From positions 1 to 39,858 of the forward strand of contig JALNWC010000001.1 in assembly GCA_023231075.1 (NCBI GenBank): a DNA stretch of 39,858 bases, given 5' to 3'. Below the pieces are notes generated by a model, which did not search any database, was not told the origin of the DNA, and saw nothing but the letters and a program-made list of their open reading frames with translations. Below are positions 7,919 through 36,354 of this stretch, in pieces. Each line of letters opens with the position of its first letter. Position 1 is the first letter of the stretch. This stretch comes from Rhodoferax sp. Its GTDB lineage: Bacteria > Pseudomonadota > Gammaproteobacteria > Burkholderiales > Burkholderiaceae_C. A program made the translations under genes and the position numbers.

Positions 7919-8320
7919 ATGGCCGGCAGTTACTTAACCACCCTCACGCCGCAGCAGGCGCTGGTGCTCGATGCCCTGCGTACCGTGGGCACCATGACGC
8001 TGGCCGAACTCCGAGCACTGACCGGCCTTGGCCAAACTTACCTGCGCCGCGCCCACCATGAGCTGTTGGCACTGAATCTGCTGACCAGCGACTATACCCG
8101 CGGCAAGGGGCGACCCATGACGCTTACCGTCACCAGCACCGGCTGCCGCGTATTGGCGCGCCACAAGCGTGTAGCAGAACGCGAATCCGACCGCGCCGAG
8201 CTGCAAGTGGTGCCGCCGCGCGGCTACGACATCGATCACGCAGTGTACGCGCCGCCGCGCCACAGCTACTACCGAAACGATGGCAATAAGCATATTGCCA
8301 GCGTGGGCGTTGGATGCTGA
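7919..8320 (+). CDS. MarR-like winged-helix protein
   Basis: LTPQQALVLDALRTVGTMTLAELRALTGL...LTVTSTG wHTH pattern. Confidence 0.6.
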   Translation: MAGSYLTTLTPQQALVLDALRTVGTMTLAELRALTGLGQTYLRRAHHELLALNLLTSDYTRGKGRPMTLTVTSTGCRVLARHKRVAERESDRAELQVVPPRGYDIDHAVYAPPRHSYYRNDGNKHIASVGVGC

Positions 8321-8336
8321 ACTTTTTGGAGCCACC

Positions 8337-10400
8337 ATGCAAAACACATTCGCTACTCTCAAATGCGCCGCGCTGGTCCCCAGCACGACAAATCCGCGCA
8401 CCATTTTTGACCCGGCCTGGATCTCCGAGCTGGCCTTGTCCATCCAATCCACCGGCGTGATCCAGCCCATCCTGGTGCGGCCCCTGCCAGGCCACCGTGT
8501 GGCCGATACCGATCGTGGTGTCACCCACGAAATTGTCGAGGGCGAATGCCGCTGGCGTGGCAGCAGTCAGGGCGGTGTGGACACCATCCCGGCCATGATC
8601 CGGGACCTGACCGATACCCAAGTCATGGAAATCCAGCTGATCAGCTTCTTGAAGCGCAAAGACCTGACCGCGCTGGAAGAAGCCCAGGGCTATGAACAGC
8701 TCATGACCGCCGCGCCCATGACGGCTAATGAGCTAGCCGACCGCATCAAGCGAAGCCGCAGTTACGTGTTTGGGCGCCTCAAGCTGCTCGCCCTGAGCAT
8801 GGAATGCAAAGAGGCCATGCGCGCCGGCCAGATCGACGCCAGCCGGGCGCTGCTCATCGCCCGTATCCCTGACACAATCCTGCAAACCAAGGCGCTGGCC
8901 GAGGCTACGCGGGTGGACTACCGGGGCGAGGTGTGCAGCCTGCGTGCATTTTCCAGTTGGCTGCAGGCCAATGTGATGCTCAAGCTGGACCGGGCCGCAT
9001 TCAATATTTCCGACTCGCAGCTGATACCTTCCGCCGGCAACTGCGCCACCTGCCCGAAGCGCACCGGCGCCAACCCGGATCTGTTTTCCGACGTGCAGAG
9101 TGTGGACATCTGCACCGACCCGGCTTGTTTCCGGGCCAAGATAGCCTGCCACCGCGCCAACATCGTGGCCACCGCTGAAAAGCGCGGCATGACGCTGATT
9201 GACGGCGATGATGCGGTCGACATCTGCGACCCGGACGGCGACTACATCGACGGCTATAGTCCGTTGACCCAAGTGCGTGAAGATACCATCGACGGCCAGC
9301 CGCGCCTGCTGGGTGCCCTGCTGGGCGACGATGCCCCGGCGCCCGTGCTGATCGAGAACCCCTGGACCAGGGAACTCATTGCCGCCGTTCCCACCGATGA
9401 GGCCGAGGCCATGCTGCTGGCCCGCGGGCTGGTGAAGGCAGCGGGAGTCAAGGCGGCCAAAAAAGACGACATCGAAGGCGACATCAAACGGCTGCAGGAC
9501 AAAATGCAGAAAGAGATCACCAAGCGCTTCCGAGAAGACGCGTTTGAGGTACTGGCCGACGTGGTGCATGACTGCGATGACGCGGTGGCAGATAAACTGG
9601 TATGTGGCGGCCTGCTTCGAGCATGGTGGTTGCGCCAAGTGAAAGAAATGAGAGCTACCGCCACCATTGCCAAGGTGTTTGGTCTGGATCTGATGAAGCC
9701 GGAAGATAGCAAAACAACCGGCGGCGTGCAAGACGCACAGACCACCCAGGTGCGCTTGCATGTGCAGCGTTGTGACTCTGCCAGCCTATATCAGGCGCTG
9801 GCTTTGTTTATGGTGCTGGACGACTGCCCTGGATATTTCTATTCCGAACCTTGTGAGCCAACGCTGCTGAACGCGCTCGCAAAAGAGGTGGGGGTTGACC
9901 TTGACGAAATGGCCAGCGACACGCGCTACACAGTGCAAGACGAATACGCCGCCGAACTCAAAAATCTTAAAGCCCAGCTCAAAGGCAGCACTGGCCACGA
10001 CATCACCGCCATCGGCTACCGTGGCCCCAATGGTGAAACCTGGACTGGCCGTGGCTTGATGCCGCGCTGGCTGACTGTGCTGGTGCAGGCTGGCCAGGAC
10101 AAGGAAAGTTTCAGGGTGACCGACCAGGTCAAGGTGATCACCCCTGAAAAATCTCCCATCACAGGAACCCCTGCTGCGCAAGCCAAGGGGCGCGGGGGCA
10201 AGAAGCCAAAAACGACCGAAGCCGAAGCCAAGGCCCAAATCGCCGCTGCGATGCAAGCGCAAGAGGAAACCAATCCAGGCGCTGACGCGCAGGGCATCGA
10301 CGGGGCCGGTGAGCAGCCAGTAGCCACCTCCGCCGCTGTCGCGCCGGCGGTGGCTCAGGCTGGGTTTAAGGCCGCTTGTCTGATGGGGGTCGAATCATGA
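8337..10400 (+). CDS. ParB/Spo0J-family protein with Cys cluster and C-terminal H-NS-type DNA-binding domain
   Basis: NPR...ELALSIQSTGVIQPILVRP...EIVEGECRWR, DLTALEEAQGY, HTH, CATCPKRTG...CTDPACF, and YRGPNGETWTGRGLMPRWL. ATG at 8337 follows GGAG. Confidence 0.85.
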   Translation: MQNTFATLKCAALVPSTTNPRTIFDPAWISELALSIQSTGVIQPILVRPLPGHRVADTDRGVTHEIVEGECRWRGSSQGGVDTIPAMIRDLTDTQVMEIQLISFLKRKDLTALEEAQGYEQLMTAAPMTANELADRIKRSRSYVFGRLKLLALSMECKEAMRAGQIDASRALLIARIPDTILQTKALAEATRVDYRGEVCSLRAFSSWLQANVMLKLDRAAFNISDSQLIPSAGNCATCPKRTGANPDLFSDVQSVDICTDPACFRAKIACHRANIVATAEKRGMTLIDGDDAVDICDPDGDYIDGYSPLTQVREDTIDGQPRLLGALLGDDAPAPVLIENPWTRELIAAVPTDEAEAMLLARGLVKAAGVKAAKKDDIEGDIKRLQDKMQKEITKRFREDAFEVLADVVHDCDDAVADKLVCGGLLRAWWLRQVKEMRATATIAKVFGLDLMKPEDSKTTGGVQDAQTTQVRLHVQRCDSASLYQALALFMVLDDCPGYFYSEPCEPTLLNALAKEVGVDLDEMASDTRYTVQDEYAAELKNLKAQLKGSTGHDITAIGYRGPNGETWTGRGLMPRWLTVLVQAGQDKESFRVTDQVKVITPEKSPITGTPAAQAKGRGGKKPKTTEAEAKAQIAAAMQAQEETNPGADAQGIDGAGEQPVATSAAVAPAVAQAGFKAACLMGVES

Positions 10401-13424: not shown

Positions 13425-13469
13425 CTGTTAATCCGTAGGTCCCTGGTTCGAGCCCAGGTCGAGGAGCCA
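13425..13469 (+). other. attP core: 3' half of tRNA-Asn(GTT)
   Basis: CTGTTAATCCGTAGGTCCCTGGTTCGAGCCCAGGTCGAGGAGCCA contains the anticodon loop, T arm (GGTTCGAGCCC) and CCA end. The 5' half is absent. Confidence 0.9.
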
Positions 13470-16202: not shown

Positions 16203-16996
16203 TATTCCCCCACGTCCATATAGCCGTCTGACTCAAGCGCATAGTAATTGATGTAGCGCACCACAAAAGGCACCGCACCCACATAAGCCCGATGTCCTGG
16301 TCGCAGTAGCCAGTCAATGGCGCATCGCACCCGCAAACCAGAGCCACTGCTGATAGAGCGCACCCCTGCAAGCTGGCGGTCGTAGGCCACAGGTGGGTCG
16401 ATGCTGGATGCGAAGGCGTCAGGGTAGCCGCTCATGGTGCAGGTGTAGCGCTGCGGACCCTGGTTGTACCGTGCCTGCTCAGTAGCAGAGCGGGCCATCT
16501 CGTACTCGATGGTCAGCGCCGTGCCTGGCACGTCGGCACACCGGAAAATCACAAATTCGGTCGCGGCGTTGATGACGTTCACCCAATTCAAGCAGGCGGG
16601 CACCACACATTGCACATAGCTGCTCGACCCGCTTTGCAGCGTCGCCTGCCAGCTGCTGATGGGCACGCGCACCGTGCCGGTTGGCGTGATCAAGTCCATT
16701 ACCCAACGGGTAACAGCATCGCCCAGCGCGGCGCTGAAGTCATGATTAATCAGCGCAGCACCAGAACCCAGTGGGCCGGTGGCGGCCATGCTGCCCACAA
16801 TAATCGTGTTACCCAGCACCGCACCATACCCCAGCGGTCCGGTGGCGTCCGTGCGGACCACAATAACTATGTTACCCAGCACCGCGCCAGCCCCCAGCGG
16901 GCCGGTCGCTTCAATGCGCGCCAACGGGTAAGGAACGCCACTATCAGCCGGCGCACCTAGGGCGGACTCACCAATGGATGCACTGCCCAGGCTCAT
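16202..16996 (-). CDS. tail protein (hub-like), hypothetical
   Basis: 264 aa in the tail module with three ATGPLGxGAVL repeats. Confidence 0.6.
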   Translation of the reverse strand: MSLGSASIGESALGAPADSGVPYPLARIEATGPLGAGAVLGNIVIVVRTDATGPLGYGAVLGNTIIVGSMAATGPLGSGAALINHDFSAALGDAVTRWVMDLITPTGTVRVPISSWQATLQSGSSSYVQCVVPACLNWVNVINAATEFVIFRCADVPGTALTIEYEMARSATEQARYNQGPQRYTCTMSGYPDAFASSIDPPVAYDRQLAGVRSISSGSGLRVRCAIDWLLRPGHRAYVGAVPFVVRYINYYALESDGYMDVGE

Positions 16997-16999
16997 GGC

Positions 17000-17608
17000 T
17001 TACGGCCCAATGAGCGTTTGCTGCTCAGGTGCCACCAGGCTGATGCGCAGCGGGTCGTTGTTGGGCGACAGCAGCACAGCGTCTGCCGGTATCAGGCCGA
17101 CTTCTTGCAGTGCCCGGAAGGTGAACGGGTTGCTCATGGCGTTGTGCAGCTTGGCTGGTGACGGCCTGCCGTTGGCGATAATTTCGGCCTGGATCTCGCG
17201 CCCGACCACGGCGGTGAACTCGTTGGCGGCGTTGGCCTCGAACATCTGTTCGTCGGTGTAGCCCGGGATGCGCGTCGGTTCGGCAATATCAGAGTACTCT
17301 TTCAGCAAGCGCTCAAGACAGGCGATCTCTTCCTCATTCTGACGGAATGACTCCTCCTGCACGGTGTGAAACGATTCCAACTCCAGGATTTCGGCTGTTA
17401 GGTTGAGGATCAAACAGGGCCGTGCGTCGTTGTTTTTCAGGTCTTGCAGCTCTGCAAGTTTCGCTTGATACTTGAGTGCTGCCACCTGTTCCAGCACCGC
17501 TGCGCGCTTGCGGCCCCCGAGAAACTCCTGCAGCGTCTTGATCTTGGCCCAGACAGTTTCGCCGAGGACCTGGTAACGGTAGTTGAATTCTGAATTGAGT
17601 CTTGCCAT
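17000..17608 (-). CDS. helical protein coupled to the repeat tail protein (possible chaperone)
   Basis: 202 aa, starts 2 nt after the repeat-protein stop, coiled-coil-rich. Confidence 0.65.
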   Translation of the reverse strand: MARLNSEFNYRYQVLGETVWAKIKTLQEFLGGRKRAAVLEQVAALKYQAKLAELQDLKNNDARPCLILNLTAEILELESFHTVQEESFRQNEEEIACLERLLKEYSDIAEPTRIPGYTDEQMFEANAANEFTAVVGREIQAEIIANGRPSPAKLHNAMSNPFTFRALQEVGLIPADAVLLSPNNDPLRISLVAPEQQTLIGP

Positions 17609-17610
17609 GT

Positions 17611-19191
17611 TTATGCTCCGATGCTCGCAGCGGCCAGCAGGCTCCGTGCGGTGCCGACACCGGTTGTGTCAGCTGCGACAACACCGGTATTGGAGACCAG
17701 GTTGGTCATTGATACTGCGTTGGTGCCGTCGCCCGTAGCGCCATAGCCGAATATGGCTTTGCCGGTGCCGATGCTCGCCGCAGCGATGCCATGTCTGGCG
17801 GTGCCAACGCCGGTTGTGTCGGCTACAACAACACCGGTATTGGAGACCAGGTTGGTCATTGATACTGCGCTGGTGCCGCCCGTAGTGCCATAGCCGAATA
17901 TGGCTTTGTCGGTGCCGTAGCCTGCTGCGGCGAGGTTGTACCGTGCGGTGCCGACACCGGTTGTGTCAGCTGCGACAACGCCGGTATTGGAGACCAGGTT
18001 GGTCATCGATACATTGATGTAGACATCATCGTTGTAGCCATAGCCGAATATGGCTTTGTCAGCGCCGTAGCCTGCAGCGGCCAGCTGGCGCCGTGCAGTG
18101 CCAACGCCGGTTGTGTCGGCTGCAACAACACCGGTATTGGAGACCAGGTTGGTCGTGGATGTGAAGCTACCGTAGCCGAATATGGCTTTGTCGGTGCCGT
18201 AGCCTGCAGCGGCGCGGTAAATCCTTACCGATCCAACGCCGGTTGTGTCAGCTGCAACAACACCGGTATTGGAGACCAGGTTGGTCGTAGACATCTGGCC
18301 GTTCGTGGCGTTGTATCCGTAGCCAAATATAGCGCGGCCAACGCCGTAGCCTGCTGCGGCCAGACCATACCTTATTGAGCCGACCCCAGTTGTGTCAGCC
18401 ACAACAACGCCCGCGCTAGAGACGAGGTTGGTCGTCGATACAGCATTGGTGCCGCCCGTGGTGCCATAGCCGAATATGGCATAAGCAGCCCTAATCCCGA
18501 ACGCATTTAATTTCCGGCCGATCAGGTAGACCTTGAGCCCGGCCCCGGCGAACGTGGAGCCGACGGTGTCAACGTCGACTGACACCTCCGCGTCGTCGCT
18601 CAGCTCTGGGTCGCTAATAACCACGGCCGCGGTGGCCGTGGTGCTGGTCTTCTCCGAGTCGTCAATCGTCAGCTTGGTGGACAGGATCGAAGTTCCGGCT
18701 TCGTTGATGTCGACGGTCAGCAATGAGCCTGTTGGCGCTGCGTTCACGCTGGCTCGCACCGCCGTGAGCGTCATTGCGAACGGCGTCCTGACTGTCATTT
18801 TTCCCGCACCCGTCGTCAACGCCGTCGTCTCATCAGATACAACTAGCGTGATCACACTCTCGACTGCCGCGGCGACTTGCACCGCGGGCATAGAGATGAA
18901 CACCTGCTTGGTGCCCGCCTCAAAGCTCACCGCCTCATCGCTGCTACTGCTACTGGTGACGGTGGTGCGCGTCAGGGTATTGGCTGCACTGTAGGTGCCC
19001 AGGCCGCACTCCCATTCGCCCGTGGGCGTGCCACCCGCATCCACCGCCTGAATGGCATAGTACAGTGTGTCACCCACGGCGCAACGCGCGCTGAACGCAC
19101 TGAAACCCGTCATGGCCCCAGCCAGCGTGATGTCGCCCGTGCCAGTGCTGGTGCTGGTTTCCTTGACCCGGTCGGCAATGATGAACGTCAT
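17611..19191 (-). CDS. tail fibre / receptor-binding-like protein with six Kelch-like C-terminal repeats
   Basis: Anchor-like N-terminus IADRVKETSTSTGTG. Six ~44-50 aa units AIFGYG-x(n)-TNLVSNTGVVAADTTGVGTARxxLAAA. Confidence 0.75.
   Translation of the reverse strand: MTFIIADRVKETSTSTGTGDITLAGAMTGFSAFSARCAVGDTLYYAIQAVDAGGTPTGEWECGLGTYSAANTLTRTTVTSSSSSDEAVSFEAGTKQVFISMPAVQVAAAVESVITLVVSDETTALTTGAGKMTVRTPFAMTLTAVRASVNAAPTGSLLTVDINEAGTSILSTKLTIDDSEKTSTTATAAVVISDPELSDDAEVSVDVDTVGSTFAGAGLKVYLIGRKLNAFGIRAAYAIFGYGTTGGTNAVSTTNLVSSAGVVVADTTGVGSIRYGLAAAGYGVGRAIFGYGYNATNGQMSTTNLVSNTGVVAADTTGVGSVRIYRAAAGYGTDKAIFGYGSFTSTTNLVSNTGVVAADTTGVGTARRQLAAAGYGADKAIFGYGYNDDVYINVSMTNLVSNTGVVAADTTGVGTARYNLAAAGYGTDKAIFGYGTTGGTSAVSMTNLVSNTGVVVADTTGVGTARHGIAAASIGTGKAIFGYGATGDGTNAVSMTNLVSNTGVVAADTTGVGTARSLLAAASIGA
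17614..18480 (-). repeat. six tandem coding repeats of ~130-150 bp
   Basis: CCGGTATTGGAGACCAGGTTGGTC occurs five times, plus one diverged copy. Confidence 0.9.
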
Positions 19192-27789: not shown

Positions 27790-27841
27790 CCTGACTTTAA
27801 AAAAATCAGGCTGTCTCAAATAGGGCAAATTGAGACGACTT
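27790..27841 (-). promoter_or_regulatory. late promoter candidate, copy 1 of a 52-bp exact repeat
   Basis: Dyad GTCTCA-N12-TGAGAC, then -10-like TAAAGT 8 nt before the protease ATG. Identical to 35983-36034. Confidence 0.75.
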
Positions 27842-27901: not shown

Positions 27902-28156
27902 TCATGAACTGCGGCGCTCCCGGTCTATGGACCGATCAATAAAAGGATGCACCTGCTCATGCTCCCACTGCTTCTTGCAGTGGTCGGGCTGCCAGAAAAA
28001 CAGCATGTTGATGAAGGCAGCAGTCCATCCCCAAACGGGATGGTCTCGGACATCCATGCGGTATGCACGGGAGGATAGGGTCTCGTAAAACGTCCCTCCG
28101 GTCAGCCGGTTAGCAACCCGGTCGATCCACACAAGCGCATCGAGTAGCATGCTCAT
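27902..28156 (-). CDS. small phage protein of the DxxxN-GG-ETLSSRAYR-LFFWQ-HC type
   Basis: 84 aa with a recognisable motif pattern, abutting the upstream gene. Confidence 0.7.
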   Translation of the reverse strand: MSMLLDALVWIDRVANRLTGGTFYETLSSRAYRMDVRDHPVWGWTAAFINMLFFWQPDHCKKQWEHEQVHPFIDRSIDRERRSS

Positions 28157-28609
28157 TTACAGCCCCAGCTTGGCTTTTTCGTCCCGGCTCCATTGCCGGC
28201 ATGCCTCGACGTAGTCGCCAAACGCCAGAAGCTCAGCTTGCTCGCCCGGCTCAAACGTATAAGCCCCCAGCGCAACACCTACGCCAATGCGCGCAAATTT
28301 TGCCTCGTCGCTCATGCTGTAGCGGCCGCGGATTTGTTGTTCGGTGCGCTCGTAAATCAGTTGCACATGCGGGCTGGCCGCTTTGATGCGCGCCACCAGG
28401 TCATCACCCAGCGCCACCGGCTGTGGGTTGATCTCGCTCGGTTGCGTGGGCAGCGTCAATCCATCCGGCACGGCCACGTAGGTGGTGCCGTCAAGCGTGC
28501 ACAACTCGGTGCAGCGCAGGCTGTCGTCCGCGCCCTGGTTGTCTGGCAGCGCCATTTGAATGATGGTGTGCGGTGTGGAAAACTTTTGGTAGGCGTAGAT
28601 AGAGGTCAT
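28157..28609 (-). CDS. hypothetical protein downstream of DGR RT (possible fibre-assembly factor)
   Basis: 150 aa, AAGGA SD, IRGRYSMSDE...YVEACR. Its 5' 119 bp overlap the RT 3' end. Confidence 0.7.
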   Translation of the reverse strand: MTSIYAYQKFSTPHTIIQMALPDNQGADDSLRCTELCTLDGTTYVAVPDGLTLPTQPSEINPQPVALGDDLVARIKAASPHVQLIYERTEQQIRGRYSMSDEAKFARIGVGVALGAYTFEPGEQAELLAFGDYVEACRQWSRDEKAKLGL

Positions 28610-29561
28610 GGTGCTTTTCCTTCAGGTAAGTTAAAAGTGGTTTAAACGAGCAGGTGCGCCGTGCATGTCCCAGGCGCGACACCACGCCCTCCATGCGGTC
28701 ACGGCGGGCGTCGGTGCGCATGGCGCGGATGACGTGCGGGCGCACAAAACGCCCGCACGCCCAGGTGCGAAATCCGCAAAAGTTGGCTCCCCGTTTCACC
28801 GGGTGCAGGCTGTAGTGGCTGATCTCCAGGCCCAGCCCAGCCAGGTGCGTGCGTATGGCCGCCAGCCAGGCGGCACCGGTGGTGCGGTCGGGGGCCAGCA
28901 TGATGCTGTCATCCATGTAACGGCCATAGTGCGGCACCTTGAGGGTGCGCTTGCAAAACTGGTCGAGGCTGTTGAGGTAGATGTTGGCAAAGGTCTGACT
29001 CATCAAGTTGCCAATGGGCACGCCGGTGGGGCTGTCGCGGTGAGCAAACATGGCTAGCAGCGCCAGGGTGTCTTGGCACTTGATGACACGCGCCAACAGC
29101 GCTTGCAGGGTGTCGCGGTCGATGCTGTAAAAAAACTTGCGCACATCCACATGCAGCACCCATGCGCTGCGCGGGGCCTGGCGAATCACGCCTTGCAGCC
29201 AGTCGGCGGCCTGGTGCGTGCCACGGCCCACGCGACAGGCAAAGCTGGTGTCGATGTAACGGCGCTCGAACAACGGGGCGATGACGGCGTACACCGCATG
29301 TTGCACTACCAAGTCGCGGAACGCCGGCGCTTCAATCAGACGTGGCTTGCGGCCGTCTGTCACCCAAAATCGGTTGCATGGCTTCGGTTTATAGTTTCCG
29401 GTTCGCAACTCGCGCTCCAACGTGTCCAGGTTAGTGCCCAGGTTGCGGCCAAACTCAAAACAGGCACGGTGGCTGCGCTTGCGGTCACCGGCTTTGTGGA
29501 ATGCAGCCAGCAGCGCGGCTTGCGTGCAGATGTGCGGGTACAGGTTTCCAGTGCGTTTCAT
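28491..29561 (-). CDS. brt: DGR reverse transcriptase
   Basis: KPRLIEAPAFRDLVVQHA, DVRKFFYSID, GVPIGNLMSQTFANIYL (DGR-type SQ motif), YGRYMDD. No maturase or endonuclease domain. ATG at 29561 (MKRTGNLY). Confidence 0.95.
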   Translation of the reverse strand: MKRTGNLYPHICTQAALLAAFHKAGDRKRSHRACFEFGRNLGTNLDTLERELRTGNYKPKPCNRFWVTDGRKPRLIEAPAFRDLVVQHAVYAVIAPLFERRYIDTSFACRVGRGTHQAADWLQGVIRQAPRSAWVLHVDVRKFFYSIDRDTLQALLARVIKCQDTLALLAMFAHRDSPTGVPIGNLMSQTFANIYLNSLDQFCKRTLKVPHYGRYMDDSIMLAPDRTTGAAWLAAIRTHLAGLGLEISHYSLHPVKRGANFCGFRTWACGRFVRPHVIRAMRTDARRDRMEGVVSRLGHARRTCSFKPLLTYLKEKHHDLYLRLPKVFHTAHHHSNGAARQPGRGRQPALHRVVHA

Positions 29562-29825
29562 GGGCAGATGGCCTTGGCGATCATGCGCATACGCATCCAA
29601 TGCAAGCATTTCTCAGTCACAGCACTGGGCATCAGCGCCACAAACAAGAGCGCAGCAAGAAACACCGCGACTTGAAATAACGCGACAAACCCAATTTTCG
29701 CAAGGGCAGCAACACGGCTGGCGACAGCTACCGAAGGGGTTTGTTGCAAAACATTTCGCCGCAAGGCACGACGGAGGCTCCCTCTTTGCCAGACGGTACA
29801 CACCGCATGAGGCGTATATGGCATA
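29562..29825 (-). other. DGR spacer between TR and RT, structured RNA candidate
   Basis: Pairing arms GCAACAAACCC (29737-29747) and GGGTTTGTCGC (29682-29692). TGCCA...TGGCA hairpin directly after TR. Confidence 0.55.
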
Positions 29826-29946
29826 GAGTCGCAGGCAAAGCCAACGTTGTTGTTGGCGTTCGTCCGGTTGTTGTTGAGATTGCGATTGCGAGACCCGGCA
29901 TTGCTGCCGTTGTTCCAATTGCCACGAGAAATCACACAGAGCATGT
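29826..29946 (-). ncRNA. DGR template repeat (TR)
   Basis: 121-bp copy of VR with 13 AAY codons. All 17 mismatches to VR are at TR adenines. Confidence 0.96.
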
Positions 29947-30368
29947 TAAGCCTCCACCGCATTCTGGGGCGTGAGCCCCTGAATTTCTGACCTGACCCAG
30001 CCACCAATCATGCGGCCCAGTTCGTCCACCATTTTCAAAATAGTCAGGAAACGGTGCGCGCCCGGCTCCTTCGCATCCTTGCGGCTCAGGCTGTAGTTGA
30101 ACAGCCCCATTTCATTGGCCAGGTGAATCATCATGCGCAGCTGCTCGTGGCGCACGTCCAGTTGGGTCAGGCTTGTTTTTTTGAAGTACCGTTTTTGGCA
30201 CTCGGTCACCAGGTTGTAAACGTCCAAAAACGCTTGCCGAATGCCTTGCGTTAGGGTGTATTTGTGGCAGTTGGGAAAGTGGGCCAGGTAGCCCTCCAAC
30301 TGCACCGCAAACAGCACCAGCTTTCGGTGCAGTCCGGCCTCAGCATGAATGGATGTTTTTTGTGCCAT
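29946..30368 (-). CDS. avd: DGR accessory variability determinant (Avd, four-helix bundle)
   Basis: FPNCHKYTLTQGIR...KKTSLTQLDVRHEQLRMMIHLA...VDELGRMIGGW, between VR and TR. Confidence 0.93.
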   Translation of the reverse strand: MAQKTSIHAEAGLHRKLVLFAVQLEGYLAHFPNCHKYTLTQGIRQAFLDVYNLVTECQKRYFKKTSLTQLDVRHEQLRMMIHLANEMGLFNYSLSRKDAKEPGAHRFLTILKMVDELGRMIGGWVRSEIQGLTPQNAVEA

Positions 30369-30376
30369 GGTGGGTT

Positions 30377-30402
30377 TGTCCTTATCGCTATCGCTCAGGA
30401 CA
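30377..30402 (-). other. hairpin downstream of VR (candidate retrohoming recognition element)
   Basis: TGTCCT-GAGCGATAGCGATA-AGGACA, 2 nt after the target stop codon. Confidence 0.6.
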
Positions 30403-30404
30403 CA

Positions 30405-32216
30405 TTACAAATACGAGGCGCAGGCAAAGCCAACGAGGTTGCTGGCGGCCGACCGGTAGCTGTCGAGATGGCGATTGCGAGACCCGGCATTGCTGCCGAG
30501 GTACCAACCGCCACGAGAAACCACACAGAGCATGTCCACAATCCTTTGGTTAAAGCGATCGGTGCCCATGGCGTTGCTGCCTGCGGTACTCATGCCGGCT
30601 GCGGCGGGCAGGCCCAGCATCGCCAGCGCGCGGCCGTTGGCGGTACTCATGTCAAACACGGCATTGGCACCATTGCCATACCGCTGGTCATAAATATTGT
30701 TGGGGTACGTGGTGGCAAAGTTGAGCGTGACCGCATCAAACTGCGCCGCCACGCCCGTGGCACCCCAGTGGTCGGTAGCCAGCGTAACGCCTGATGTCAC
30801 GGCGGCAATGTCCACCGACTCTTTCAGCGTGTAAAACGTGCCGTTGGCGACCGTGCCGCCTGAGGTCCAGGCGGTAAACGCCGTGCCATCCACGCCGTTG
30901 AGCGTGATCGTGTTGGCATCCACTACGGTGACCACGTAAATCTTGCCGTTAAGCTGCGTCATGCCCGCCACAGCGTCAATCTGCACATAGTCACCCGTGG
31001 TGCGGCCATGCGTGGCCACAGTGAGCGCCACCGGGTTGGCCTGGGTGGCGCCGGTGATGGCCTTGCTTGTGGCAATGCACGTCAGGCCTGGGTTGATCTT
31101 GTAGATGTTGCCTGCCACGTCGGCAATGCCGCAAGCCTGGCCGTTGTGGGTGGTGCGCGCAAATACCGAGCCGCTGCCGGTCTTGGCAAAGTAGGGTACC
31201 GTGGTGGCGCCTGCGCTGGTGAACGTTACCGCGCCAGCGCCGTTTTGCAGCACGTCGGCCTCTGACTTTAGCGCGCTGTTGTCATTGCCCTTGGGGTAGT
31301 TTCGCACGCCGGTAGCGTCGTACCAGGCGCAGTAGGTGGCGCTGGTGGCAGCTTGGGCAATCCAGTCGCTGATGTCGCTTAGGGCGGAGGCGATGAACAC
31401 GCTTTCCGGGAAAAACTTGTTGCCCCGGCTCTTGGCCGCTTGCAGCGCGCCATAGTAAAAATTGCCCGGCGTCTGGCCGTTGGCAGTGCAGCCGACAAAA
31501 CCAATCTGCTGCGACACCGTGCCGGTGCCTGTGCCCACACCTGTGGCGGTAAAGCGCAGGCCAACGGTGTTGCTGGCAGCGCCGATCAGGGTAAAGTCCG
31601 TGGTGCCCACCGACAAAATGGTGTACACCCGCGCCGCCACCGTGGCTGTGGCGGCTTCGGGTTGTGGCCCGGAGACCATGGGCATCACATTTGGGAGGCT
31701 ACTGGCGATGGTGCCGTTTTGCGAACAGTCGTATTTGTCGCGGAAAAAACCGGGTTGAACGGCGCCTGCGTTGATGAATGCGCGGTGGCGGTAGTAACCC
31801 TCGGCATTGGCGGTGGCGTCGTCAGGGAAAGTGTCGATGGCCACAATGCTGACACTGTTGACACCATAGATTCCATAAGTGGGGTTGTCAGGATGGCCGC
31901 GGCGAATCCAGAATGCCGGAACCCACACCGTGATGGAGCCGTCCCGCACATACTGGTAATTTCCGTAGTTGGCAGACAACACATCGCTGTAACCTGGCAG
32001 CGGCAGGTAGCCGTCAGGCAGGGCGGGGCAAATTCCAACGCCGGAACCGGCGGCGCCGGGGGTGCCGATGTTGTTGGCTGGCGTTGCACCAAAAGCGTCA
32101 AGCCAACTAATGTCAAGCCGCGCATTTGCGTCCGCCACAGGGCTGCGCCCGGCGGCGGCGGTCAAACTTGAGGGGCGGTAGCCGTGGGCGTTTAATTGTC
32201 CGTGGTTGATGCTCAT
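30405..32216 (-). CDS. DGR target protein (Mtd-like, C-type lectin/FGE-type fold with C-terminal VR)
   Basis: GFFRDKYDCS, THNGQACGIADVAGNIY, and C-terminal SRGGWYLGSNAGSR...VGFACASYL. ATGA-coupled start at 32216. Confidence 0.92.
   Translation of the reverse strand: MSINHGQLNAHGYRPSSLTAAAGRSPVADANARLDISWLDAFGATPANNIGTPGAAGSGVGICPALPDGYLPLPGYSDVLSANYGNYQYVRDGSITVWVPAFWIRRGHPDNPTYGIYGVNSVSIVAIDTFPDDATANAEGYYRHRAFINAGAVQPGFFRDKYDCSQNGTIASSLPNVMPMVSGPQPEAATATVAARVYTILSVGTTDFTLIGAASNTVGLRFTATGVGTGTGTVSQQIGFVGCTANGQTPGNFYYGALQAAKSRGNKFFPESVFIASALSDISDWIAQAATSATYCAWYDATGVRNYPKGNDNSALKSEADVLQNGAGAVTFTSAGATTVPYFAKTGSGSVFARTTHNGQACGIADVAGNIYKINPGLTCIATSKAITGATQANPVALTVATHGRTTGDYVQIDAVAGMTQLNGKIYVVTVVDANTITLNGVDGTAFTAWTSGGTVANGTFYTLKESVDIAAVTSGVTLATDHWGATGVAAQFDAVTLNFATTYPNNIYDQRYGNGANAVFDMSTANGRALAMLGLPAAAGMSTAGSNAMGTDRFNQRIVDMLCVVSRGGWYLGSNAGSRNRHLDSYRSAASNLVGFACASYL
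30415..30535 (-). repeat. DGR variable repeat (VR)
   Basis: Aligns without gaps to TR at offset 589 and encodes the last ~40 residues of the target. Confidence 0.96.
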
Positions 32217-32494
32217 TGCTTCACCCACGCGGTTTCGCTGGTCAAAAGGCCGGCGGTGTAGCCAAAGGTTTTGACCCAGGTCCCGACGCCGTCTGTGGCC
32301 GTGTCTGTGGTCAGATCGCCACCTGTGAAACCGTAGATGTGGCTACAGGCGTCCGGATTAAAAAGCGCCCCGGTGGAGTCTGGTACTAACGATCCTCCTC
32401 CCGCGTAGGCCTGGCCGGTGGCGGGGTCGAGTAGCACGACGGCTTGCGGGCTCAAGGTGCGCGTGGCACCAGGTACATCAATAAATTCAGACAT
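32213..32494 (-). CDS. small structural-like protein coupled to the DGR target
   Basis: GGAG SD, MSEFIDVPG...WVKTFGYTAGLLTSETAWVKQ, ATGA overlap with the target. Confidence 0.65.
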   Translation of the reverse strand: MSEFIDVPGATRTLSPQAVVLLDPATGQAYAGGGSLVPDSTGALFNPDACSHIYGFTGGDLTTDTATDGVGTWVKTFGYTAGLLTSETAWVKQ

Positions 32495-33808: not shown

Positions 33809-35740
33809 TTAATTGATGGGCGTGGTGATGGTTTCGATCAAATTACCGTCGCGGTCGCGGGTGTGCACCTGGCGCATGGCGGCACGGGGCGCGGGCTGCA
33901 CCACCACGGTGGGCGCGGGCACGTTGACTTGCGTGGCTTCTACCGTGTAGGCGGTCTGCACCAGACCCTCGGGCAAGTTGACGTTGATTTCATGGCCCTC
34001 GATCGTGACCGGAGGCGTGTTGATGGTGATGCTGCGCGGCTCGGCGGCCAGGGCATCCAAGCTGGCTTGAAAGCGGTCAATGGCGGCATCGCGGGAAGAC
34101 GCGGCGGCGGTTTTGGCGGGTGCGTCATCAGGCTCAGGCGGTGCATTGGTCGATGTTGCCGGGCTGCCGGGTGGCGGAACATAAATGCCGTCGCGCTTTT
34201 CGGCATTGATTTCCTTCACCCGCTGCTCGTGCTTTTGTTCCCAGTCCACACCATCGTGCAGTATGGATTCGGCCTGCTTGGTGCTGATGCCCAGGTTCAC
34301 CCGCGCCTGCGCGGCGGCCACTTCTTTGGCCGGGTCGATTGAGCCGGGGCCGTCGCCGGTCCAGATAGCAGCACACCAAGCGGCGCGCACAATGTCGTCG
34401 GCAAAAAAGCCGGGGCAGTGGATGCGCCCCTCGGCCACCTCGTCGGCCAGCCACAGCTCGATCACCGGCTGGCACAGGTTCTTGGCCAGAAAATCGCGCT
34501 TGCTGCGAAAGGCTTTCCAGGCCATCAACAGCGCGGCCCGGGCAGCGCTGTAGGATGATTGAAAGTGCATCACCAGCACCTCGAACGGCATCTCCAGCGC
34601 CATGCCGATCTGGCGCACCATGGCGGTCCAGAACGGGTCAAACGCCGGGTTCGGGCGGCCCGGCGCGGGGCTTTCAATGCTTTCGCCGGGCAGCAAATTG
34701 ATGGCCTTGCCACTGTCCATCTCGCCACTCCATTTGCTGGCGGCATCCACAATGGCGCCCTGCGCGTCTTCGTCGTACAAATTGTCAAAGGCGTCGGGGT
34801 CCATCTTGATGAAGGTGGCCATCAGGCCGCTGACCACCGCCGCGTGCAGTTCGGCATCACTCCAGCGCCCGAGCTGTTTGAGGGGTTCCAGAATGGGCGC
34901 AATCCACGGCACGCCGCGCACCTGGCCGGGGCGCAGTGGCTTGAACAGGCGTAGCACATTGCGCCGCCCGGTGCTGTCACCCCGCATGGCCACGCGCTGC
35001 CAGGTGTTTTTGCCTATGGCGGTGGCGTTGCCCGGGTGCTGGCGGGCCACGTGGATGGCCAGCGCCTCGCCGGTGGGCGGGTGGATCTCGATGCCGTCAA
35101 TCAGCGTGTCAGTGTCTTGCGCGCGATCGGGGTTGCAAATGCGGTCGGCCTCGATGAGCTGCAGGGCCAGGCGCGCCGGGCGGCCGCTGCGCGCCATGCG
35201 CGGCGTGAGCACGGCCACGTCGCCGCTCTCCAGAAAGCTGCGAAAACACAGTTCCTGCAAGCCGTAAAAATCCAGCTGGCGGGCGGCATCACAGTCCGGC
35301 GACTCGGCCCAGGCCTTGAAACGGCGCTTGGCGTCGTCTTGCCAGGCCTCGACCTGGGCATCACTCAGGCCCAAAAATTTGGCGTCAATCGCCGGGGTGT
35401 ACGTCAGCCCGGTGCCCACCACGTGGCTGACCGTGGTGTTGAGCGCACCCAGCGCGATCGGTGCATTGCGCATCTGGTCACGCGAGCGGGCCCGCAGCAT
35501 GGGCAGGTCGCGCACGGTGTCGGCATTGGCACTGCCCGCCGTGGGTAGCCAGCGCGAGAGCTGGGCGCGGTCAATGCGCGCGCCGGTGTAGCCGCCTGAC
35601 AACGCCAGCTGGGTGCGCTGCTGCATGCGCTGCAGCGCCAGGCCGGGGCGCACATAAGCAATGGCTTTGTCGAGCAGGTTCTGGCCCACCAGGGGCGCGG
35701 GGTTTGGCCCTCGGGGCGGGTTGGGTGTGCCGCCCATCAT
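33809..35740 (-). CDS. portal protein, lambda family, with C-terminal extension
   Basis: LRARSRDQMRN, LQLIEADRI, RPGQVRGVP, SYSAARAAL, IDPAKEV. Confidence 0.93.
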   Translation of the reverse strand: MMGGTPNPPRGPNPAPLVGQNLLDKAIAYVRPGLALQRMQQRTQLALSGGYTGARIDRAQLSRWLPTAGSANADTVRDLPMLRARSRDQMRNAPIALGALNTTVSHVVGTGLTYTPAIDAKFLGLSDAQVEAWQDDAKRRFKAWAESPDCDAARQLDFYGLQELCFRSFLESGDVAVLTPRMARSGRPARLALQLIEADRICNPDRAQDTDTLIDGIEIHPPTGEALAIHVARQHPGNATAIGKNTWQRVAMRGDSTGRRNVLRLFKPLRPGQVRGVPWIAPILEPLKQLGRWSDAELHAAVVSGLMATFIKMDPDAFDNLYDEDAQGAIVDAASKWSGEMDSGKAINLLPGESIESPAPGRPNPAFDPFWTAMVRQIGMALEMPFEVLVMHFQSSYSAARAALLMAWKAFRSKRDFLAKNLCQPVIELWLADEVAEGRIHCPGFFADDIVRAAWCAAIWTGDGPGSIDPAKEVAAAQARVNLGISTKQAESILHDGVDWEQKHEQRVKEINAEKRDGIYVPPPGSPATSTNAPPEPDDAPAKTAAASSRDAAIDRFQASLDALAAEPRSITINTPPVTIEGHEINVNLPEGLVQTAYTVEATQVNVPAPTVVVQPAPRAAMRQVHTRDRDGNLIETITTPIN

Positions 35741-35961
35741 CCGACCACCACAGTGCGCGCGCGGCCGCGGCCAGCGGCAGTGCGGGCCAGGCCGGTGACG
35801 CGGGTGTTCCACGTCTTAATGCCGTCCTGGATCTCGGCCAGATTGGCCCGCGTCAACCGCCGCCCGGCAATCTCATACGCCTGGCCCGATAAAACAGCGG
35901 TTTCGGCGGCCAGGTAGGCGTCGAGCTGCGTTTGCGCTTGAAGTAAGGTGATGCCTGCCAT
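35737..35961 (-). CDS. head completion protein (gpW-like)
   Basis: MAGITLLQAQTQLDAYLAAETAVLSGQAYEIAGRRLTRANL, directly upstream of portal. Confidence 0.8.
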   Translation of the reverse strand: MAGITLLQAQTQLDAYLAAETAVLSGQAYEIAGRRLTRANLAEIQDGIKTWNTRVTGLARTAAGRGRARTVVVG

Positions 35962-35982
35962 GTGTGTGCCTAGGTGGTAGGC

Positions 35983-36034
35983 CCTGACTTTAAAAAAATC
36001 AGGCTGTCTCAAATAGGGCAAATTGAGACGACTT
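35983..36034 (-). promoter_or_regulatory. late promoter candidate, copy 2 of the 52-bp exact repeat
   Basis: Identical to 27790-27841. Lies right after the Mor-like gene and upstream of gpW. Confidence 0.75.
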
Positions 36035-36354
36035 CAGCTAAAGCGCCCGCCGCCCTCTTTCATCACACGGTAAATGGTGGCCCGGCTCACGTTGTGGCGC
36101 GCCTCGATGTCTTGGGTGGGCATGGAGGTCAGGCCGTCCTGGTACACAGCGGCGCGCTGCTCGGGTGTGAGCCGCTTGGCGCCCTTGGGCACAAACACCC
36201 GGCGCCCGCCGTAATCGGCCTTGACGCGCTCTTCCACCTGGCGGGCCAGCGCGGCGCTGAAACCCGGCGCCATGGCAATCACCATCTGCAGCGTGTAGGC
36301 CACCACGTCGGGTTCGGGGTCGGGGTTGGGATGCATCATGGTGATATTGCTCAA
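36034..36354 (-). CDS. Mor/C-family transcription activator (late gene activator)
   Basis: DYGGRRVFVPK followed by C-terminal HTH IEARHNVSRATIYRVMK. Confidence 0.8.
   Translation of the reverse strand: MSNITMMHPNPDPEPDVVAYTLQMVIAMAPGFSAALARQVEERVKADYGGRRVFVPKGAKRLTPEQRAAVYQDGLTSMPTQDIEARHNVSRATIYRVMKEGGGRFS

Follow-up and report, generated by a model that had tools for sequence, protein, structure and literature searches.

A phage diversity-generating retroelement with a conserved reading frame through template repeat and spacer that probably couples avd to the reverse transcriptase gene

The diversity-generating retroelement (DGR) of Bordetella phage BPP-1 consists of the target gene mtd, avd, a template repeat (TR), a spacer (Sp) and the reverse transcriptase (RT) gene brt. 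The TR has been termed non-coding (PMC6182149, PMC4372165) or mostly intergenic (PMC8144416), and the legend of Fig. 4 in PMC5758913 reads 'The TR is not translated in vivo'. The Handa preprint (10.1101/2023.10.23.563531) likewise terms the spacer non-coding, and reports that in BPP-1 Brt and Avd copy the TR from a folded RNA, whose duplex between avd and the spacer, part of the cPRT Stop, is required for reverse transcription. A structural group in which the TR overlaps the annotated RT open reading frame (ORF) was described earlier (PMC3521204), and in the Pseudoalteromonas ACA phages translation of the TR gives an N-terminal extension of the RT, which is 'not commonly the case' and for which the available text offers no mechanism (PMC10612066). 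The available portions of PMC8867640, PMC10053308 and 10.1101/2024.11.15.621889 contain nothing on a translated TR-spacer frame. In Escherichia coli, the native BPP-1 operon has no clear ribosome-binding site (RBS) before brt and an added RBS raises activity 100-fold (PMC12875486); RT translation can therefore limit a DGR. Here we analyze a DGR in a 39,858-nucleotide stretch of DNA from Rhodoferax sp. (contig JALNWC010000001.1 of assembly GCA_023231075.1, hereafter the window), in which an open frame spans both the TR and the spacer.

The element is a phage DGR in which the conserved TR-spacer frame probably carries ribosomes from avd to the RT gene by translational coupling, as judged from sequence comparison across relatives. 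The frame has the arrangement of a coupled gene chain, with its start by the upstream stop and its stop on the downstream start, and this arrangement is kept in relatives (loci are denoted L, contigs of the assembly C). Among 50 close loci, the stop of the TR frame lies exactly on the ATGA of the RT gene in 48 and 11 nt into the RT gene in the other two. The spacer of the window exceeds that of L002 by 105 nt (35 codons) with the frame kept, and the 11 spacer lengths found among close representatives fall into a single phase, with two exceptions. Among close relatives, L173 alone has a TR frame interrupted by a stop; its spacer is off-phase and thereby brings the remaining frame into phase with the RT.

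A wider sample comprised 379 loci, 347 of them with an RT. Removal of 27 loci without Avd, 26 lacking a usable RT start and one that failed the length and AAY filters left 293, which dereplication at 95% RT identity brought down to 214. In 172 of these 214 loci no stop interrupts the TR frame ahead of the RT start, compared with 15 and 21 for the other two frames. Among the 172, 148 stop within -12 to +30 of the RT start, 21 fuse in frame with the RT and 3 overlap it further, and the single position +4 accounts for the stop in 126 of the 214 loci. An open frame combined with a start by the avd stop is found in 142 loci, against 6 and 5 in the other frames. The in-frame TR-RT fusions occur on several branches of the RT tree.

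Because the TR is open by nature, the spacer was also counted alone. In the close clade the TR frame is open through 47 of 48 spacers, where dinucleotide shuffles predict 16.4; the other forward frames are open in 0 and 22 and the reverse frames in 14, 30 and 31. Over about 2,246 codons per frame, these spacers contain 1 stop in the TR frame versus 75 and 32 in the other two. The same frame is open in 126 of 166 distant loci (52 and 21 in the other frames; 43.9 expected from shuffles) and in 34 of 57 low-GC loci (8 and 4 in the other frames). For a test on sister pairs, 188 of the 214 loci were anchored and joined into 94 non-overlapping pairs. Spacer length differs within 62 of them, in 39 by a multiple of three (p 1.8e-6), and where both sisters are coupled the difference is a multiple of three in 32 of 38. 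The gap between target stop and avd start, used as a control, has no phase (10/6/7). Spacer changes are spread evenly over the three codon positions (328/371/367; 272 non-synonymous and 145 synonymous), unlike those of the RT gene (1478/1123/3775; 639 and 2707). Thus the frame is kept in the spacer part, whereas the peptide is not.

The Shine-Dalgarno-like site of the frame lies in a covarying RNA structure. The 13-bp duplex between avd and the spacer shows compensatory changes in 7 of 13 pairs, with 96% of cells paired among 48 relatives, and is followed by a short stem-loop and three adenines, like the cPRT Stop of BPP-1. For the whole structure, which was derived from the same sequences that entered its shuffle test, none of 500 shuffles reaches any measure, and all slid controls are beaten as well. 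Pairing with the anti-Shine-Dalgarno (anti-SD) motif amounts in the window to -9.3 kcal/mol at the TR ATG and -2.6 at the RT ATG. Values of -4 or below are found for the TR start in 94% of 126 coupled loci versus 29% of 14 uncoupled ones. Once folded, the template would conceal the SD site that serves the TR frame; ribosomes moving across TR and spacer would have to open this fold.

These features suggest the following scheme. RT and Avd would make errors at adenines while copying the TR, and the copy would enter the lectin-like tip of what is probably an attachment protein. Ribosomes that finish avd would reinitiate at the TR ATG, travel across TR and spacer while melting the duplex that hides their own SD site, and begin anew on the RT gene at the ATGA overlap; in-frame fusion of TR and RT would be a second solution to the same need. 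Each transcript would act either as mRNA making RT or as folded template, with ribosome traffic setting the balance, and the conserved feature would be the act of translation and not the peptide. The scheme bears on how DGRs set their mutation rate and divide the transcript between RT synthesis and template. A full switch in a large branch of DGRs, in which ribosomes on TR and spacer make RT and unfold the template while the duplex masks the frame's ribosome site and thereby assigns the RNA to mutagenic copying, is a tentative extension that we hold to be less likely than not. In addition, about 13 of the 39 TR codons encode Asn, and it is a speculation by analogy with attenuator leaders that ribosome speed could tie the mutation rate to the supply of Asn-tRNA. 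For overlapping gene pairs, 13 of 14 tested were reportedly strictly coupled (PMC6728339). A prfB-type +1 frameshift from avd into the TR frame was considered and rejected by reasoning, as the last avd codon, GCT, could not re-pair in the +1 frame.

Several observations weigh against coupling. A start is absent within -8 to +12 in 22 of the 148 coupled-type loci, and 42 of the 214 loci, BPP-1 among them, have a stop inside TR or spacer. BPP-1, the DGR that has been studied best, works without such a TR start, and the frame is therefore not required for DGR function. The same +1 ATG recurs in 120 of 214 loci; as one inherited arrangement, it makes the counts overstate independence, which the pair test lessens and does not remove. 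RT starts reach -4 or below in 69% of coupled and 56% of uncoupled loci, and since many coupled RT starts thus have an SD-like site of their own, coupling is maybe not strict. Finally, the RNA duplex also requires the G-rich SD-like strand, which is rich in G in BPP-1 as well, so that its conservation is not independent evidence.

One rival reading takes the locus for an ordinary DGR with an untranslated frame, the TR being open as the mirror of the variable repeat (VR), the spacer being GC-rich and structured, and the ATGA arising from MK/MR starts, all inherited together. The missing codon-position signal in the spacer, the absence of the frame from BPP-1 and the 42 loci, the opening of the +2 frame in 22 of 48 close spacers and of the reverse frames in 14-31 of 48, and the term non-coding used for TR and Sp in papers all agree with such a by-product. 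This explanation is nevertheless quite unlikely in our view, given the single stop against 75 and 32 in close spacers, an excess of open frames that persists in low-GC loci, and the common phase of all but two exceptions among 11 spacer lengths. Moreover, the VR does not need the TR ATG, having another codon there in 39 of 40 cases, and in-frame fusions recur on several branches.

Alternatively, translation of the frame could serve to shield some 280-380 nt of RNA from Rho-dependent termination or decay, with the RT gene initiating by itself and the ATGA being secondary. Polarity in untranslated stretches is established, unbroken ribosome cover accounts equally well for the avoidance of stops, and SD-like sites stand at many RT starts. 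However, cover needs no stop exactly on the RT start, which is nonetheless at +4 in 126 of 214 loci and replaced by in-frame fusion in 21, and the RT site of the window is weak (-2.6); we regard this alternative as unlikely. A functional peptide is very improbable. Such an Asn-rich product of 83-128 aa might imitate the variable tip and so act as a decoy, or might assist RT or Avd as a cofactor; it would form the RT N-terminus in 21 loci, and its TR part is conserved at the amino-acid level with a third-position bias (118/102/217). That conservation, however, follows from the role of the TR as template of the VR, and the spacer part changes evenly across codon positions, unlike the RT, and varies widely in length. 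Translational coupling by the TR-spacer frame is therefore the reading that we retain. The features of the locus are collected in Table 1.

Table 1 Features of the DGR locus and its flanks in the window.
Feature	Position	Strand	Remarks
150-aa gene, no named family	28157..28609	-	overlaps RT 3' end
DGR reverse transcriptase, 356 aa	28491..29561	-	YMDD catalytic and GNLMSQ motifs intact
TR-spacer ORF, 128 codons	29558..29944	-	ATG 1 nt past avd stop; TGA overlaps RT ATG (ATGA); predicted, likely translated
Spacer (Sp)	29562..29825	-	covarying stem-loops
Spacer strand of 13-bp avd:spacer duplex	29768..29780	-	window fold
Template repeat (TR)	29826..29946	-	13 AAY codons; repeat search and alignment
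avd, 140 aa	29946..30368	-	PF22296, 45 bits vs cut-off 40; phrog_3206 match
avd strand of avd:spacer duplex (cPRT-Stop-like)	29948..29960	-	includes GGAGG Shine-Dalgarno-like site of TR frame
DNA hairpin just after target stop	30377..30402	-	GATA (GRNA-type) loop; stem broken by G.A mismatch pair; z -2.96
DGR target gene, 603 aa	30405..32216	-	VR at C-terminus; inserted FCCH-like beta barrel at about residues 380-460
Variable repeat (VR)	30415..30535	-	repeat search and alignment
93-aa gene, no named family	32213..32494	-	stop overlaps target start (ATGA)

The original prediction, made from the DNA letters, had described a complete DGR in the order target(VR)-avd-TR-spacer-RT on the minus strand, and the gene calls and profiles agree with this order. 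It had further reported an ungapped alignment of TR and VR with 17 mismatches, all at TR adenines, that change 13 residues, and this is reproduced here together with both peptides. The alignment covers 121 nt, 32 of them TR adenines, and all 17 mismatches (A>G 7, A>T 5, A>C 5) would fall on adenine by chance with a probability of 2.6e-12. The 13 AAY codons give 15^13 = 1.9e15 combinations, in line with the predicted figure of about 2x10^15 variants. Three codons separate the end of the VR from the target stop. Among 40 distinct related TR/VR pairs examined, all 38 with TR GAC share the final mismatch (29829 A vs 30418 C, GAC>GCC), which is best read as a fixed end difference of the IMH*/IMH (initiation of mutagenic homing) type and not as a product of mutagenesis; with it set aside, 16 mutagenic mismatches and 12 residues remain. 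Across 40 pairs, 559 of 984 TR adenine sites are changed, compared with 24 mismatches at other bases. The single VR is the only one found, as neither a second VR nor a target in trans was detected in the 542-contig assembly.

The hairpin behind the VR has a loop that agrees with the GRNA consensus given for such hairpins in PMC3240598, on an interrupted stem; the corresponding hairpins of L038 and L042 have perfect stems and GACA or GAAA loops. Two relatives have TRs poor in adenine, L023 (5751-5871) with 14 and L002 (3457-3577) with 23, where most relatives have about 28-32. These TRs look as if the template itself had been mutagenised, and in both loci the TR-spacer frame is intact despite the loss of adenines.

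The RT start is most likely 29561 and not 29609, because the MKR start is common to relatives. The best PDB match of the RT is the Bordetella phage RT 8UB7 (E 3.8e-51), with the best group II intron-type RT at E 8e-22. Placement in a DGR phylogeny had been proposed as a check, with grouping among group II RTs speaking against a DGR. A FastTree phylogeny unites all 101 DGR RTs, BPP-1 Brt and the window RT among them, in one clade (support 0.90), outside which lie 8 group II-like RTs, one of them L084 from the same assembly. All group II, retron and DRT models of NCBIfam score below their cut-offs on the RT. Two other RT matches in the assembly are about 30% identical to the window RT, and a search across 40 related genomes returned distant matches only. 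For avd, the model NF033474 also scores below its cut-off. The RT clade, the Avd profile match and a target model similar to TaqVP (Z 13.7) together bear out the call of a complete DGR.

The lineage is supported as active by where its VRs vary. In contigs from four other runs, which share about half of the window's sequence words and among whose alignments some are the TR itself aligned to the VR, all 26 variable VR positions lie at TR adenines (among the 40 of 47 alignments listed); one of these runs yields three distinct VR contigs. Viral contigs with identical TRs, in 6 groups, have 90 of 94 variable VR columns at TR adenines. The VR of the nearest relative, L087, departs from that of the window at 19 sites, and TR adenines account for 18 of these. 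For the window's own population, the likely source run gives a single contig without differences across the DGR; both read-run comparisons used contigs, which drop rare variants. The claim that the element is or was recently active thus holds for the lineage, where VR variation in relatives falls at TR adenines as had been anticipated, while the element's own population is represented by one invariant contig.

The target was modeled from residue 2 onward, with a mean predicted local distance difference test (pLDDT) score of 71.6. Over residues 67-602, the model best matches TaqVP (5VF4; Z 13.7, root-mean-square deviation 4.3, 290 aligned residues, 17% identity), and further DGR targets follow (Mtd, Z 6.3; TvpA, Z 6.1). 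The target is thus predicted to be a CLec-fold variable protein, although the VR part of the model, with pLDDT below 50, weighs against relying on the fold there. The inserted barrel resembles the FCCH domain of E1 and tail-tube appendages. With the whole target as query, Foldseek yielded only this barrel from PDB and, from BFVD, an unnamed Campylobacter phage protein; the CLec match was obtained in a wide structure search. Judging from the fold and the virion-gene neighborhoods, the target is likely a virion attachment protein, with a putative receptor-binding role.

The 150-aa gene downstream is present in 96 of 109 loci. It begins inside the 3' end of the RT gene, at the same offset in most relatives, and the RT tail is therefore double-coding. 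This gene still follows the target in loci from which avd-TR-RT has been deleted, so that we take its product for a likely partner of the target and not for a component of the DGR. Its model is confident (pLDDT 93.9), with no PDB match at Z of at least 8, one unnamed viral match and atlas neighbors without Pfam family; it belongs to a viral protein family for which no fold is named. The 93-aa gene precedes the target in 16 of 109 loci. Several relatives have lost the DGR machinery: an avd stub is fused to the RT tail in L090, L093 and L094, only the RT tail is left in L102, and in L092 and L107 the target leads directly into the 150-aa gene. In L109/L110 (8039-8200), where the RT is absent, the TR past avd becomes VR-like midway, includes a stop and leads on into the 150-aa gene; this looks like a TR/VR recombination that removed the RT.

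The window is the complete contig C1 of a 542-contig, 3.27-Mb assembly and has the gene content of a temperate phage: terminase and portal of lambda type, S49 protease, capsid, tail tape measure, integrase and repressor-like genes. The DGR lies downstream of portal, holin and endolysin and upstream of the head protease. A 45-bp core (13425-13469) is identical to the host tRNA-Asn 3' end on contig C186 (3741-3785); it is flanked on both sides by phage genes (integrase region and tail genes), and the match to the host flanks is no longer than the core. Such an attP-like core inside the contig, between phage genes, suggests that the contig carries the unintegrated arrangement. Another copy of the tRNA-Asn core, with non-phage flanks, is present on C285 (4171-4219). 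The host has two arrays of clustered regularly interspaced short palindromic repeats (CRISPR) with the same 28-nt repeat, C59 3198-10287 and C135 35-3816, which we take to be type I-F. Among 181 CRISPR spacers, 13 match the phage with up to 3 mismatches, most with 1-3; CC is found on the 5' side in 12 of the 13, and one match falls within avd (30191-30222). These matches tie the phage to this host. Contigs carrying close DGR relatives are titled Rhodoferax, Macromonas, Ottowia or Burkholderiales, and the cassette is found in unrelated phages: in a scan of 37 of the 96 listed ORFs, it is adjacent to the portal in L002 and L023, and in L088, L099, L107 and L111 it lies amid capsid and internal-virion genes that belong to a different phage type.

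Further features were observed around the cassette. An exact 52-nt repeat with internal inverted repeats (27790-27841 and 35983-36034) brackets the block of portal, lysis and DGR genes, one copy following a Mor-family gene (36034-36354) before the portal operon and the other preceding the head protease; it is likely a duplicated late promoter, and a scan of promoters and terminators performed no better than chance. A small ORF on the minus strand (35737-35962) has its ATG just past the repeat and its stop abutting the portal start, presumably the position of a lambda gpW-like head completion gene. The contig ends (1 and 39858) fall just upstream of the small terminase gene, which we take to be where lambda-like phages have cos, and overlap neither each other nor other contigs of the assembly. 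Six copies of a repeat of about 150 nt (17591-18480) lie within a gene for a 526-aa protein in the tail region and three copies of a 63-nt repeat (16746-16934) within a gene for a 264-aa protein; neither protein has a Pfam or PHROGs match. On the plus strand, 8280-10400 encodes a ParB-family protein of 706 aa whose residues 580-613 match the H-NS C-terminal domain. An 84-aa gene after the cassette (27945-28166) has an 88% identical copy on C214 (2383-2604).

As a DGR, the element adds one member to a large family that is already known. The fusion form of the frame has already been noticed in the literature, whereas the conserved stop-on-start frame appears to be new; in a search that covered subscription journals thinly and left supplements outside, no report was found of this form, its conservation or a coupling role. 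If true, our reading would revise the statement in PMC5758913 that the TR is not translated in vivo. It would also explain why some DGR RTs are annotated with the TR fused to the N-terminus, and stop codons or frameshifts engineered into the TR of a native operon could alter RT levels.

The locus resembles BPP-1 (8UB7) in gene order, Avd, RT, adenine-only TR-to-VR differences and a C-terminal VR, and also in the GRNA-loop hairpin and the avd:Sp duplex followed by a short stem-loop and adenines. The BPP-1-type mtd-avd-TR-brt layout assigned by the original prediction thus applies to the gene order, while the start-to-stop frame across TR and spacer is a departure from it: in BPP-1 the TR frame lacks an ATG, GTG or TTG start beside the avd stop and ends 28 nt short of brt. 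Moreover, the BPP-1 RT is only 38.5% identical to that of the window, the 603-aa target with its FCCH-like barrel is nearer to TaqVP than to Mtd, and the cassette is inserted in a lambda-like phage, where portal/lysis genes flank it on one side and the head protease on the other. The predicted target fold is shared with the CLec/FGE-type targets TaqVP, Mtd (1YU0) and TvpA (2Y3C); the window target differs from TaqVP in its low identity and the extra barrel. The DGRs of Pseudoalteromonas phages ACA1/ACA2 and Aeromonas phage phiARM81mr share the start at the avd stop and the frame open through TR and spacer. Their frame is fused to the RT, whereas that of the window ends on the RT start in another frame; the ACA-type fusion is found in 21 of our 214 loci and the stop-on-start form in 148. 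With ATGA termination-reinitiation pairs and bacterial upstream ORFs, the locus shares the stop/start overlap and an SD-like site upstream. It differs from such pairs in that the upstream frame is a structured template RNA without a conserved peptide, for which coupling is suggested by sequence.

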